DNA from: a virus
Taxonomy: Duplodnaviria; Heunggongvirae; Uroviricota; Caudoviricetes
Virus record (IMG/VR): IMGVR_UViG_2529292832_000008
Length of the DNA stretch: 4,451 nucleotides
Reading direction: 5' to 3' (one strand)
The translations under genes were made by a program, and so were the position numbers. Below the pieces are notes generated by a model that saw nothing but the letters and a program-made list of their open reading frames with translations, had not been told where the DNA came from and did not search any database. Positions 1 to 4,451 of this stretch are shown one piece after another (position 1 is the stretch's first letter; every line of letters starts with the position of its first letter).

Positions 1-505
1 GGAGAAATAGGTGTTCTGTTTGCCGTTATCCGTTGTCTGTGTACGGGGAGTTCTGGCTTTCGGTGCCAGCATCTGCGCCACACCACCGAGGATCATACTG
101 GCCCCTGCCGCATACATGCCCGATACAGCCGCGCACCCAGCCAGCCCACAGGGTTCCACCATGCCACCGCAATAACGCCGCCCCCAGCACCACCTGAAAC
201 ACACCGCCACTTTTAGCTCCCGCCAGACGCGGCACGATATGGATCACGGCACCATTTGCCAGCGGCTCATTAAGACGGGCAGATAATTCGGTTTCACCTG
301 CATCACGCCCGGCAATGCGCACCTGATACCAGCCGTCATTCAGTTTCTGACGAAACGCCGGGAGCTGTGTGGCCAGCGCCCGGATGGCTTCGGCCCCCGT
401 TTTCACACGAAGGTCGATGCGGCGGCCAAATCGTTGCAAATCCCCGTAAAGGCAGATGCGTGCCATTCCCGGTGACGCCAGAGGGAGTGTGTGCGTCGCT
501 GCCAT
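1..505 (-). CDS. I: Tail assembly protein (lambda gpI-like), N-terminal ubiquitin-like domain; 3'-partial, with an apparent reading-frame discontinuity around positions 95-185 (possible pseudogene or indel error)
   Basis: Start ATG at 503-505, embedded in the 3' end of K (103-nt overlap), with a weak GAGG at 517-520. The N-terminal ~110 residues (MAATHTLPLASPGMARICLYGDLQRFGRRIDLRVKTGAEAIRAL...AKSGGVFQVVLGAA) look like a real beta-grasp/ubiquitin-like protein. The same frame then gives 49 codons rich in W/R/C/G (LLRWHGGTLWAGWVRGCIGHVCGRGQYDPRWCG...) and stops at 26-28. A different frame, open from 243 down to position 1, encodes ...GASMILGGVAQMLAPKARTPRTQTTDNGKQNTYFS, which looks like genuine conserved protein and continues off the window. 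The gene therefore probably extends past position 1 in that second frame. Confidence 0.7.
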
Positions 506-1146
506 TTGTCGGTATACCTCTCTCGTTTACTCAGTTGTTCAGGAATATGGTGCAGCAGCTCACCGTCGCCGCAGTAAATGGCGGCATGATTCGGCACCGA
601 TGAACCAAAGCAGCACAGCAGCACATCGCCAGGCTGCGCCTCTGTCAGTGGGACACGGTAAAAACCAGTCGCCTCCATATTGTCAAGATAGAGATTCTGA
701 CCGTGACGCCACCAGTCATCCCCGCGATAAAAATCCGGCATCTCAATCCCCGCCAGATGATAAGCATCCCGGAACAGTGTGTAACAGTCCGTCACACCGT
801 GCTCAAAGCGCCGCCCGGTGAGATGCGGCACACAGCGGAACTTATGAATCGTCCCCCGGCAGACCAGCCACCACGGCAAATCACTCTGCACCTGCAGCCG
901 CCGGTCGGCCTCACTCAGCCAGGGCAGACCACCGGGGTGGCTGTGGACCAGCGCCACAATCTCACCCTGCATTTCTGCCTGCAGCCAGTCTTCCGGCGAC
1001 ATACGGAAATACGCCTCCGGCTCACCGGAGATATTCGCGCAGGGGAAATATCTTTCCCCCTCCGGCGTGCTTACCACGAAGCCGCACGACTCCGCTGGCG
1101 CACATCGCCGGGCGTGCGCCAGAATCGCTGATTCTGTCTGTGTCAT
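403..1146 (-). CDS. K: Tail tip assembly protein (lambda gpK-like), two-domain JAMM/MPN metalloprotease + NlpC/P60 peptidase, 247 aa from the first ATG
   Basis: Minus-strand ORF beginning 5 nt after the L stop. Read from the translation: JAMM motif H-S-H-P-G-G-L-P-W-L-S-E-A-D (HxHx7Sx2D, residues 68-81) with an upstream glutamate in A-E-S-C-G (E20); NlpC/P60-like Cys in GVTDCYTLF (C121), His in PNHAAIY (H187), and a third polar residue in LLHHIP (H199/H200). An alternative internal start at Met49 (ATG at 1000-1002) would give a 199-aa product lacking E20. The last 103 nt overlap the start of gene I in another frame. Confidence 0.85.
   Translation of the reverse strand: MTQTESAILAHARRCAPAESCGFVVSTPEGERYFPCANISGEPEAYFRMSPEDWLQAEMQGEIVALVHSHPGGLPWLSEADRRLQVQSDLPWWLVCRGTIHKFRCVPHLTGRRFEHGVTDCYTLFRDAYHLAGIEMPDFYRGDDWWRHGQNLYLDNMEATGFYRVPLTEAQPGDVLLCCFGSSVPNHAAIYCGDGELLHHIPEQLSKRERYTDKWQRRTHSLWRHREWHASAFTGICNDLAAASTFV
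517..520 (-). promoter_or_regulatory. Weak candidate Shine-Dalgarno (GAGG) for gene I, within the K coding region
   Basis: Minus-strand sequence reads GAGGTATACCGACAAATG: GAGG is 11 nt upstream of the I ATG, which is longer than optimal spacing, so this is only a weak call. Confidence 0.3.
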
Positions 1147-1151
1147 GGGAT

Positions 1152-1850
1152 TTACTGCGAAAGTTTGTTAATGGAAAGGAAGCCGCCAAAGTTGCCGACG
1201 TTATTGCGGAACTTACAACCGCTCAGGCATTTGCTGCATTTATCCTTCGTGATATCGGACGTTGGCTGGTCATATTCATCCGCGACAGCCGGACCGCTAT
1301 AACCGCACTCGTCACCGCGATAGGTCCAGGTGCAGGTGTTGGCCAGCATGATACGTCCCGGAAAAACAGCGCCATCCGTTTCCGTCGGCGTGGACAGTAC
1401 AAAGGAGGCACTCACCGCGCTCAGTTCGCTGCACTGCTCAATGCGCCAGCGGCTGATCACCTCCTGCTCCGGATCGGCATAACTGTTTCCGTTGACGAAG
1501 TTCACCGCATCCAGAAAACGGGCGTAAACCTTACGCCGGACCACCGTTCCGCCGACCAGACTCTGCATATCTTCCGCCATCCCGGTGACCATACCGTACA
1601 GGTTAGAAACCGTCAGCGTGGGGCGCGTACTGGTGCCTTTGCCATTCAGTTCAAAACCGCTCCCCTGAATGGGATACGGCTGATACTGTCGCCCCTGCCA
1701 GGTGACCGGCTCACCTTTTTCGTTCTGCTCATTACAGAAAAAATAACGTTCTCCACCGACCTCTGTCAGGTCGATTTCCCAGAGCACCACGCTGGCCGAC
1801 TGCTCCGCACGGGTGCATTCATTCAGTGTTTCCTGCCGGATATCCTGCAT
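1152..1850 (-). CDS. L: Tail tip protein (lambda gpL-like), 232 aa, with C-terminal cysteine cluster
   Basis: 232-aa minus-strand ORF, the same length as lambda gpL. Start ATG at 1848-1850 is preceded by AGGTGGTGA (1855-1863). The C-terminal region carries clustered cysteines (C173, C182, and C-S-K-C-L-S-G-C at residues 205-212), consistent with the Fe-S-binding C-terminal domain reported for gpL-family proteins. Stop TAA at 1152-1154, 5 nt before the K start. Confidence 0.9.
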   Translation of the reverse strand: MQDIRQETLNECTRAEQSASVVLWEIDLTEVGGERYFFCNEQNEKGEPVTWQGRQYQPYPIQGSGFELNGKGTSTRPTLTVSNLYGMVTGMAEDMQSLVGGTVVRRKVYARFLDAVNFVNGNSYADPEQEVISRWRIEQCSELSAVSASFVLSTPTETDGAVFPGRIMLANTCTWTYRGDECGYSGPAVADEYDQPTSDITKDKCSKCLSGCKFRNNVGNFGGFLSINKLSQ

Positions 1851-2179
1851 CAGTTCACCACCTGTTCAAACTCTGCGCTGAACTCAACACGCAGCATACT
1901 GACCCGCGACGACCATTTTGCGCAGGTCACCTTTATCTGCCGCCACTCATAAGGCGGCGTCCACAGAAAGGATTTCCAGCCCCCGTGCTCTTCCAGAAAC
2001 GACTCCAGTACCGTGGCCTCCTCACGGGGGACAGAAAGCGTCACGCTGTACGTTTTCAGGTTGGCATTCAGCCCGGCAGGCGCTCGCTGGGAATAGCCAT
2101 CACCAAAGCGCACCTTTCTTACAGAAGGGACCGAAGCCACATCCATACCGGGTTTCACTTTCCAGCGGAAGGTCTTCAT
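1850..2179 (-). CDS. M: Minor tail / tail tip assembly protein (lambda gpM-like), 109 aa
   Basis: 109-aa minus-strand ORF (MKTFRWKVKPGMDVASVPSVRKVRFGDGYSQRAP...), the same length as lambda gpM. Start ATG at 2177-2179 overlaps the H stop (ATGA) and is preceded by a strong Shine-Dalgarno GGAGGTG at 2184-2190. Stop TGA at 1850-1852 overlaps the L start by 1 nt. Gene order matches lambda. Confidence 0.9.
   Translation of the reverse strand: MKTFRWKVKPGMDVASVPSVRKVRFGDGYSQRAPAGLNANLKTYSVTLSVPREEATVLESFLEEHGGWKSFLWTPPYEWRQIKVTCAKWSSRVSMLRVEFSAEFEQVVN
1855..1863 (-). promoter_or_regulatory. Shine-Dalgarno sequence for L (AGGTGGTGA), inside the 3' end of M
   Basis: Minus-strand sequence reads AACAGGTGGTGAACTGATG: a purine-rich SD-like element 4-8 nt upstream of the L ATG, with the M stop TGA overlapping the L ATG (TGATG). 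Confidence 0.6.
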
Positions 2180-4451
2180 CGTCCACCTCCGGAGAACAGG
2201 CCACCATCACGCATCTGTGTCTGAATTTCATCACGGGCACCCTTGCGGGCCATGTCATACACCGCCTTCAGAGCAGCCGGACCTATCTGCCCGTTCGTGC
2301 CGTCGTTGTTAATCACCACATGGTTATTCTGCTCAAACGTCCCGGACGCCTGCGACCGGCTGTCTGCCATGCCGCCCGGTGTACCGACATAACCGCCGGT
2401 GGCATAGCCGCGCATCAGCCGGTAAAGATTCCCCACGCCAATCCGGCTGGTTGCCTCCTTCGTGAAGACAAACTCACCACGGTGAACAATCCCCGCTGGC
2501 TCATATTTGCCGCCGGTTCCCGTAAATCCTCCGGTCGCAAAATGGAATTTCGCCGCAGCGGCCTGAATGGCTGTACCGCCTGACGCGGATGCTCCACCAC
2601 TGGCAGCACCGCCAATGGCGCTGCCGATACTCCCGACAATCCCCACCATTGCCTGCTTAAGCAGAATTTCTGTCATCATGGACAGCACGGAACGGGTGAA
2701 GCTGCGCCAGTTCTGCTCACTGCCGGTCAGCATCGCCGCCATATTCTGTGCAATACCATCAAAGGTCTGCGTGGCTGCACTTTTTACCTGCGACATACTG
2801 TCCGTGGCGCTCTCTTCCCACTCACTCCAGCCGGACTTCAGGCCTGCCATCCAGTTCCCGCGAAGCTGGTCTTCAGCCGCCCAGGTCTTTTTCTGCTCTG
2901 ACATGACGTTATTCAGCGCCAGCGGATTATCGCCATACTGTTCCTTCAGGCGCTGTTCCGTGGCTTCCCGTTCTGCCTGCCGGTCAGTCAGCCCCCGGCT
3001 TTTCGCATCAATGGCGGCCCGTTTTGCCCGTTGCTGCTGTGCGAATTTATCCGCCTGCTGCGCCAGCGCGTTCAGGCGCTCCTGATACGTAACCTTGTCG
3101 CCAAGTGCAGCCAGCTGGCGTTTGTACTCCAGCGTCTCATCTTTATGCGCCAGCAGGGATTTCTCCTGTGCAGACAGCTGGCGACGTTGTGCCGCCTCCT
3201 CCAGTACCGCGAACTGATTTTCAGCCTTCCACAAATCCCGGCGCTGCTGGCTGATTTTCTCATTTGCTCCGGCATGCTTCTCCAGCGTCCGGAGTTCTGC
3301 CTGAAGCGTCAGCAGGGCAGCATGAGCACTGTCTTCCTGACGATCGCCCGCAGACACCTTCACGCCGGACTGTTTCGGCTTTTTCAGCGTCGCTTCATAA
3401 TCCTTTTTCGCCGCCGCCATCAGCGTGTTGTAATCTGCCTGCAGGATTCTCCCGTCTTTCAGTGCCTTGTTCAGTTCTTCCTGACGGGCGGTATATTTCT
3501 CCAGCGGCGTCTGCAGCCGTTCGTAAGCCTTCTGCGCCTCTTCGGTATATTTCAGCCGTGATGCCTCAGACTCGGCCCAGTCCTTTGCTGCCATCTCTCT
3601 GGCCTTTTCAAGATCGGCCTGCAACGTGGCGGCTGAAAGCCCAAGTTGCGCATTCGCTCTGTCCTCCCATGCTCCCCGGAGATTGGCAAGAAATGCTGAG
3701 GTTTTACCGCGCCGGTGGCTCCGGCTCTGATACCACTGCCATTTTTTGTCCGCCTCATCAAAAGCCTTTTCTGCTTTCTCCAGCATTCCCTGGGCAGTGT
3801 CCGGGCGACCAATATCCAGCACCGAATCCCACATGGATTTGAATGCCCGTGCTGTCCTGTCTGCCCAGGTCTCCAGCGTGCCCATGTTCTCTTTCAGGCG
3901 GCGGGTCTGGTCATCAAACCCTTTCGTTGCGGCCTCGTTCGCCGCCTGCAATGCCCCGGCTTCATCTCCGGAACGCTGCAACTGAGCAACATACGCAATC
4001 TGCTCCGCCGTCACGTTATGGAACTGACGTGCCATCGCTGTCAGTCCCGACGTCGGGTCTGTGGTCAGCTTCCCGAAGGCTTCAGCGACCTTGTCCACCT
4101 CCACGCCGGATGCAGAGGAGAAACGCGCCACACTCTGGCTGATCGCCTCAAACTGCTCACCACCACGCACACCGGCATTCACCAGCGCCGTCAGTGACTC
4201 GCTGGTCTGGTTAAACGTCAGCCCTGCCGCCTGCCCGGCTCTGGACAGGACCAGCATACGATCTGCCGTCAGTCCCGCCTGATTGCCGGAAAGGACCAGC
4301 GTTTTGTTGAAATCGGACAGGGTTGAGTTGCCCTGATACCAGGCATACGCCAGCGCCCCGGTCGCCACCGCCAGCGAGGTGGCCCCCACCATCGGCAGGG
4401 TGATCGCACCGGCAAGCCCCCGGAACATGGGGATCATCCCGCCGAAGGAGT
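2176..4451 (-). CDS. H: Tail tape measure protein (lambda gpH-like), 5'-partial; N-terminus lies beyond the window end
   Basis: Single long minus-strand ORF. The track starts it at Met 4437, but the frame is open to position 4451 (codons upstream read ...S-F-G-G before MIPMFRG), so the real start is outside the window. The translation has a charged, coiled-coil-like central region (e.g. RLKYTEEAQKAYERLQTPLEKYTARQEELNKALKDG, QQRRDLWKAENQFAVLEEAAQRRQL) and a Gly-rich hydrophobic segment near the C-terminus (AMVGIVGSIGSAIGGAASGGASASGG, about 2560-2652), as expected for a lambda-type tape measure. Its TGA stop (2176-2178) overlaps the ATG of the next gene (ATGA). Position directly upstream of M-L-K-I matches lambda gene order. 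Confidence 0.9.
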   Translation of the reverse strand, partial: SFGGMIPMFRGLAGAITLPMVGATSLAVATGALAYAWYQGNSTLSDFNKTLVLSGNQAGLTADRMLVLSRAGQAAGLTFNQTSESLTALVNAGVRGGEQFEAISQSVARFSSASGVEVDKVAEAFGKLTTDPTSGLTAMARQFHNVTAEQIAYVAQLQRSGDEAGALQAANEAATKGFDDQTRRLKENMGTLETWADRTARAFKSMWDSVLDIGRPDTAQGMLEKAEKAFDEADKKWQWYQSRSHRRGKTSAFLANLRGAWEDRANAQLGLSAATLQADLEKAREMAAKDWAESEASRLKYTEEAQKAYERLQTPLEKYTARQEELNKALKDGRILQADYNTLMAAAKKDYEATLKKPKQSGVKVSAGDRQEDSAHAALLTLQAELRTLEKHAGANEKISQQRRDLWKAENQFAVLEEAAQRRQLSAQEKSLLAHKDETLEYKRQLAALGDKVTYQERLNALAQQADKFAQQQRAKRAAIDAKSRGLTDRQAEREATEQRLKEQYGDNPLALNNVMSEQKKTWAAEDQLRGNWMAGLKSGWSEWEESATDSMSQVKSAATQTFDGIAQNMAAMLTGSEQNWRSFTRSVLSMMTEILLKQAMVGIVGSIGSAIGGAASGGASASGGTAIQAAAAKFHFATGGFTGTGGKYEPAGIVHRGEFVFTKEATSRIGVGNLYRLMRGYATGGYVGTPGGMADSRSQASGTFEQNNHVVINNDGTNGQIGPAALKAVYDMARKGARDEIQTQMRDGGLFSGGGR
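2184..2190 (-). promoter_or_regulatory. Shine-Dalgarno sequence for M (GGAGGTG), inside the 3' end of H
   Basis: Minus-strand sequence reads TCTCCGGAGGTGGACGATGA: GGAGGTG sits 4 nt upstream of the M ATG, which overlaps the H TGA stop. Classic translational coupling. Confidence 0.7.

Follow-up and report, generated by a model that had tools for sequence, protein, structure and literature searches.

Two Single-Base Deletions Spread a Lambda-Type Prophage Gene I over Three Reading Frames and Are Probably a Draft-Sequence Error

Introduction

How should a prophage gene be understood whose similarity to intact homologs passes through three reading frames: as a gene inactivated by mutation, as a gene expressed in an unusual way, or as an ordinary gene with bases missing from its deposited sequence? 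The question is raised by gene I of a prophage in Escherichia coli 2749250, which lies at one end of contig AQDZ01000136.1 (4,451 nt; draft assembly GCA_000354875.1). The whole contig was analyzed and is referred to as the window.

The gene I product (gpI) begins with a ubiquitin-like (Ub-like) domain that ends in a conserved glycine, and a Gly-rich linker then leads to a small domain at the C-terminus (Iyer et al. 2006, PMC1779556). The JAB domain of the K protein is predicted to cleave gpI at the C-terminal glycine of the Ub-like domain (PMC1779556). In cryo-EM structures of phage lambda, gpI is resolved from residue 134/135 to residue 223. It forms a trimeric plug in the lumen of the tail tip, which pairs with gpJ through beta-sheet augmentation and on which the C-terminal helices of gpH rest, and the hydrophobic N-terminal stretch of the plug may enter the outer membrane (PMC10721106; PMC12617516).

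Results

The Window Carries a Distal Lambda-Type Tail Module

According to the ORF list, all large ORFs of the window lie on the minus strand and their order, H-M-L-K-I, is that of a distal lambda-type tail module. The genes that precede I are as follows:

2176-4451, minus strand: H, tape measure gene, open up to the contig end and partial
1850-2179, minus strand: M, 109 aa, ORF open
1152-1850, minus strand: L, 232 aa, ORF open
403-1146, minus strand: K (JAB/MPN plus NlpC/P60 peptidase), 247 aa, intact, with PF14464 and PF00877 found on the identical product

K is the upstream neighbor of I, and the contig stops inside I before any J gene is reached. In the 13 related loci for which a downstream gene is listed (L001-L003, L005-L009, L011-L014, and L018), J is the next gene after I. 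The tail module is multi-copy in E. coli: the median genome has 2-3 places that match it, and the maximum is 13.

Gene I Belongs to the Lambda gpI Family

The affected region is the 5' three-quarters of a lambda-type prophage gene I, encoding the tail tip assembly protein I (TAPI, gpI family). The gene starts with an ATG at 505 on the minus strand, 103 nt inside the 3' end of K (K stop codon at 403-405). In lambda, I likewise follows K with the same 103-nt overlap (K 14276-14875, I 14773-15444). An hmmscan search placed the N-terminal part of the product in PF06805 with 87.5 bits (gathering cut-off, 23.8), and the alignment spans positions 2-83 of the 83-position profile. Lambda gpI itself (NP_040599, 223 aa; PDB 8IYK, 8IYL, 8K35, 8XCG, 9E7M) is identical to the window product over residues 1-54 and shares with it the PF06805 domain, the KSGG motif at the end of that domain, and the C-terminal sequence ...LGGVAQMLAPKARTPR(I/T)QTTDNGKQNTYFS. 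The family assignment made in the original prediction thus held on three counts: the domain score, the gene order and the matches to lambda gpI.

The intact I protein of E. coli MS20654, introduced below as a near-identical relative, matches the lambda gpI chains in 8IYK, 8IYL, 8K35, and 8XCG (PDB) with E=1e-109, and the last readable segment of the window's gene aligns to lambda gpI residues that are resolved in 8IYK and 9E7M. On sequence comparison, the near-identical intact homologs and the solved structures settle the identity of the gene.

Related records annotate I from three different starts, which correspond to ATG 505, TTG 439, and GTG 406 of the window, so that I products of 215-216, 191, and 180-182 aa coexist in the databases. 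Furthermore, four entries of the protein collection (P0005, P0016, P0029, and P0087; 234-281 aa) are I homologs fused to NlpC/P60 (K) or Phage_tail_L domains; real fusions, of which Iyer et al. (2006) noted examples, are one explanation, and copies of the module with a frameshift or a misassembly are the other.

Gene I Is Read in Three Successive Frames

Translation of positions 1-520 of the minus strand reproduced the three open frames, with all their coordinates, on which the original prediction was built. The frames and the segments of the protein that they encode are listed below together with the two positions at which the frame changes:

505 to 26, minus strand: frame A, ORF of 159 aa, with protein-like sequence as far as about residue 111 and W/R/C/G-rich sequence beyond it
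174-505, minus strand: N-terminal part of I, frame A, with residues 1-110 and the first two bases of codon 111
215-466, minus strand: Ub-like domain (PF06805, Lambda_tail_I), residues 14-97, intact
203-208, minus strand: Gly100-Gly101 of the KSGG motif (residues 98-101), frame A, at the C-terminal end of the Ub-like domain and upstream of both deletions
174/173, minus strand: deletion 1, a G is missing (GCGTT/ATTGCG vs GCGTTGATTGCG or GCGCTGATTGCG in relatives), frame A to frame B
212-96, minus strand: open extent of frame B, which contains IAVAWWNPVGWLGA
135-173, minus strand: residues 112-124 (IAVAWWNPVGWLG), readable in frame B only, hydrophobic Gly/Ala/Trp-rich linker
134/133, minus strand: deletion 2, a CC pair is reduced to a single C (GGGTG/CGCGG vs GGGTGCCGCGG in relatives), frame B to frame C
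243 to 1, minus strand: open extent of frame C, which leaves the contig and contains GASMILGGVAQMLAPKARTPRTQTTDNGKQNTYFS
1-132, minus strand: residues 126-169 (AAVSGMYAAGASMILGGVAQMLAPKARTPRTQTTDNGKQNTYFS), frame C only, start of the C-terminal plug domain, cut by the contig end
26-28, minus strand: TAA stop codon that ends the 159-aa product, whose first 111 residues are native and whose last 48 are out of frame

On the minus strand, the gene matches intact homologs from 505 to 174 in frame A, from 173 to 134 in frame B and from 132 to 1 in frame C. The frame A protein equals that of intact I alleles up to residue 111, the frame B peptide of residues 112-124 is identical to that of intact alleles, and codon 125 (GCC in intact alleles) is the codon that has lost its C. 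As deposited, no single frame encodes a full-length gpI: an ORF of about 213-223 aa that joins the Ub-like domain, the linker and the plug is absent and is obtained only when two bases are restored. With both bases in place, 169 out of 169 residues equal those of the MS20654 I protein. The restored sequence, used as a protein query, found hundreds of clusters of single-frame proteins of 213-216 aa named "tail assembly protein".

The intact I genes of PhiR47_1, mEp460, cdtI, E. coli GE3, and E. coli MS20654 were aligned to the window. Relative to these five alleles the window shows exactly two 1-nt gaps, in agreement with the proposal that 1-nt indels cause the frame switching. The gaps lie 40 nt apart inside the linker, and both are less than 175 nt from the contig end. 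Given this position, the Ub-like domain keeps its frame and the plug domain loses it. Gly100-Gly101, the predicted cleavage point of the K JAB peptidase, is encoded ahead of both.

The original prediction had also located the indels, at the homopolymer runs 181-185 and 102-105, and here the alignment disagrees. The base lost in deletion 1 is the lone G of TTGATT (GTTGATT to GTTATT), and the G5 run at 185-181 ends 7-8 nt before it; deletion 2 removes one base of a CC pair, and about 29 nt separate it from the C4/G4 run farther on (105-102). Both gaps fall outside the runs, so slippage or miscalling at homopolymers, the cause that had been suggested, is ruled out.

Lambda differs from the window in that its I gene is read in one frame, where the window needs two frame changes. 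Its Gly/Ala linker is also 8 codons longer than that of the 215-aa allele carried by the five relatives and differs in sequence (AIAGSFFTAGATLAAWGAAIGAGGMTGILFSL in lambda vs IAVAWWNPVGWLGAAAVSGMYAA). These 24 nt together with the two missing bases account for the difference of about 26 nt that had been given in the original prediction, along with the correct length of 223 aa for lambda gpI.

An arrangement in which each frame change restores the native protein could in principle be read through by programmed ribosomal frameshifting, with two -1 shifts inside the linker. A -1 shift at each site does regenerate the native protein; this follows automatically from a 1-nt deletion, so it is not independent evidence. 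Two efficient shifts would be required in succession, no slippery heptamer of the form X XXY YYZ is present in any of the three frames within positions 1-260 of the window, and all other copies of the window's I allele encode the protein in one frame. With neither a slippery heptamer nor conservation of the two-frame arrangement in relatives, programmed frameshifting is effectively refuted.

The I Allele Is a Mosaic with Close and Intact Relatives

The 215-aa I genes of MS20654, GE3, PhiR47_1, mEp460, and cdtI are intact single ORFs annotated as "tail assembly protein", and the window lacks the G and the C that they contain. MS20654 (region of WP_302365027.1) differs from window positions 505-1 by five substitutions, all of them synonymous, and by the two bases. 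No substitution separates GE3 (WP_000741576.1) from window positions 89-466 (0 in 378 nt), and the two lost bases are the sole difference there.

Overall, the contig is most similar (97.8%) to the prophage of the enterotoxigenic strain ETEC 120899 (CP025916), and the two sequences do not differ at positions 1-90 and 370-2372. The I gene of this prophage encodes 213 aa and differs from the window in the linker, over 91-369, being 6 nt shorter there than the 215-aa allele. No other gap in the contig relative to ETEC 120899 was found outside the divergent linker region of I (117-176). In H, tight clusters of substitutions relative to ETEC 120899 occur at 2419-2437 and 4144-4192, without indels, and look like further short recombination patches on sequence comparison.

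Between 91 and 369 the window carries the GE3/MS20654-type allele, which it follows at about 35 variable sites, and the right-hand crossover is confined to positions 89-90. The window's I gene therefore looks, from its sequence, like a natural mosaic of the 215-aa and 213-aa allele types. The same recombinant is found intact in MS20654, which argues against an assembly chimera. A chimera of two prophage copies is also unneeded as an explanation, as the combination of a GE3-type linker with a TPRTQTT C-terminus is intact in MS20654, YF-1, FJ_Ec_21, and others.

The Pair of Deletions Is Found on No Other Sequence Searched

Window positions 1-700 were compared with 5,426 complete E. coli genomes. 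The best match was 96.6% and, among the matches listed, all were 2 nt longer than the query, that is, the double deletion was found in 0 out of 5,426 genomes among the matches listed. Over positions 86-400, 60 records are at least 99% identical to the window, and those listed all measure 317 nt compared with 315 nt in the window. A megablast search against phage records found 29 with a query coverage of 80% or more, and each of the full-length matches listed exceeds the query by 2 nt. GTDB species representatives and metagenome contigs were screened with a sequence pattern that accepted either state at both deletion sites; it matched 2 GTDB-representative and 70 metagenome contigs, and both bases were present in all of them.

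Among the other loci that were fetched, 77 match the window's allele at site 1 and 73 match it at site 2, in each case with the base present. Both deletions together occur only in the window among all loci fetched, and deletion 2 is absent from every other locus fetched and from the viral contigs searched. The one exception at site 1 is an IMG/VR contig (L004, IMGVR_UViG_2531839332_000012) that has deletion 1 and lacks deletion 2. In the same tail module of this contig (positions 700-1700) a base is missing every ~27 nt relative to the window, with about 54 gap openings in 1.4 kb. As a sign of inheritance its deletion 1 was rejected, the contig being riddled with errors, free of deletion 2 and equipped with a different C-terminal allele; on sequence grounds the match is regarded as a coincidence or a shared error.

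At the protein level, the product annotated by NCBI is EMW62113.1, a "lambda tail assembly I family protein" of 126 aa that starts at GTG 406. This 126-aa product is found on 1 contig among ~15 billion proteins, and an exact look-up of the 159-aa (ATG 505) and 137-aa (TTG 439) products gave no match. The 159-aa product is thus not a conserved natural variant; had it been one, the original prediction would have been refuted on its own terms.

A separate observation concerns an exact 70-nt match to the window's I allele at positions 1112-1181 of a 19.9-kb contig labeled "MAG: Bacillota bacterium" (L020, JAEWTL010000010.1), which is probably a mis-binned Enterobacteriaceae prophage.

Discussion

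Draft Error or Private Mutation

From the pattern of the two lesions we infer, with a probability of about 0.65, that the missing bases are an error of the draft sequence or its assembly and not a change in the bacterial DNA. A draft or consensus error near the contig end would have dropped two single bases from the linker of I, and the actual I gene of the strain would be a normal, unbroken one of 215 aa whose protein is identical to that of MS20654. The alternative is that the deletions are real and represent a private and very recent inactivation of I, either in one clustered event, such as an error-prone synthesis patch, or in two hits; we consider this the less likely account. If the lesions are real, a single clustered event is probably how they arose.

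The lesions consist of indels only, lie outside base runs, are clustered and are close to the contig end, a combination that favors an error over a genuine private mutation. The two deletions outside runs, 40 nt apart, are accompanied by 0 substitutions in the surrounding 378 nt relative to GE3 and by 0 in a further 2 kb relative to ETEC 120899. Spontaneous 1-nt indels in E. coli mutation spectra are ~10-fold rarer than substitutions and are concentrated in runs. The position of both lesions within 175 nt of the contig end is unexpected for real mutations; if positions were uniform, it would have a probability of about 0.006, calculated as (2x174/4451)^2. Consensus quality is typically worst at the ends of short contigs in multi-copy prophage modules.

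The lesion pair is private to this contig, and an inherited lesion was not found in the 5,426 complete E. coli genomes (among the matches listed), the GTDB representatives or the metagenome and viral contigs, which also weighs against a genuine mutation. So does the state of the rest of the contig. The original prediction had raised the possibility of a decaying prophage; M, L, K, and the visible part of H are open and free of decay, and the three frame segments of I show no non-synonymous drift. The window's differences from MS20654 downstream of the lesions (at 88 and 85) are synonymous in frame C, and with 0 non-synonymous differences from MS20654 in I there is no sign of drift after inactivation. 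The idea of a decaying prophage is thus not borne out by the remainder of the module.

Several points speak for real deletions. The deposited sequence does contain both of them, and NCBI annotated the truncated product EMW62113.1 from it. Frameshifted prophage genes are truly common in E. coli, and deposited Illumina-type drafts have few indel errors overall. As lambdoid tail modules are multi-copy in E. coli, a cell might tolerate a defect in one of them or have it complemented by another. The protein collection also contains further I entries that are annotated as fused or shortened (P0005, P0016, and P0029). Residues 135-223 of gpI form the plug that contacts gpJ and the C-terminus of gpH (PMC10721106; PMC12617516), so that loss of the frame ahead of this domain would inactivate gpI.

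Two further points count against an error. Deletion 2 is followed by 133 clean bases, and the lesions are therefore not simply the ragged tip of a contig. Furthermore, a consensus of mixed alleles would not obviously delete just two bases from a sequence that follows one allele at about 35 sites; as a source of the gaps it was rejected, the window following one allele at all substitution sites within 91-369. A literature search for E. coli 2749250 returned only irrelevant matches, with nothing on platform or assembler.

A Possible but Improbable Split Functional gpI

If the deletions are real, I might still function as a split gene, with the Ub-like domain made from frame A and the plug re-initiated in frame C at ATG 117 or ATG 96. 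We regard this as highly improbable. The idea draws on the cleavage predicted by Iyer et al. (PMC1779556), in which the K JAB domain would cut the Ub-like domain free at its terminal glycine, the deletions being downstream of KSGG, and on the two frame C ATGs, which lie close to the first residue resolved in the virion (lambda 134-135). Neither ATG is preceded by a convincing Shine-Dalgarno sequence, however, the hydrophobic segment would be incomplete, the arrangement occurs on one contig only and is not conserved, and the proposal is entirely speculative. The chance that the deletions are real and that the prophage also still makes working tails from separate Ub-like and plug polypeptides is smaller again. 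Were it true, the locus would be a natural demonstration that the domains of gpI need no covalent link, which would fit the predicted cleavage by the K JAB domain.

Consequences for the Annotation and the Prophage

Overall, the locus contains a known gene for which an ordinary draft-assembly error is the more likely account and an ordinary defect the other, and it has little importance beyond annotation hygiene. In the case of an error, EMW62113.1 would be a mis-translated fragment and the strain would have a normal I gene. In the case of a real lesion, the cell would make a Ub-like domain followed by 48 junk residues and no in-frame plug, and the prophage would be tail-defective unless another lambdoid prophage in the cell supplies gpI, a routine step in prophage domestication. 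The break just past the Gly-Gly of the Ub-like domain cleanly parts the two domains of gpI, and its position would be relevant only to whether these domains must be linked.
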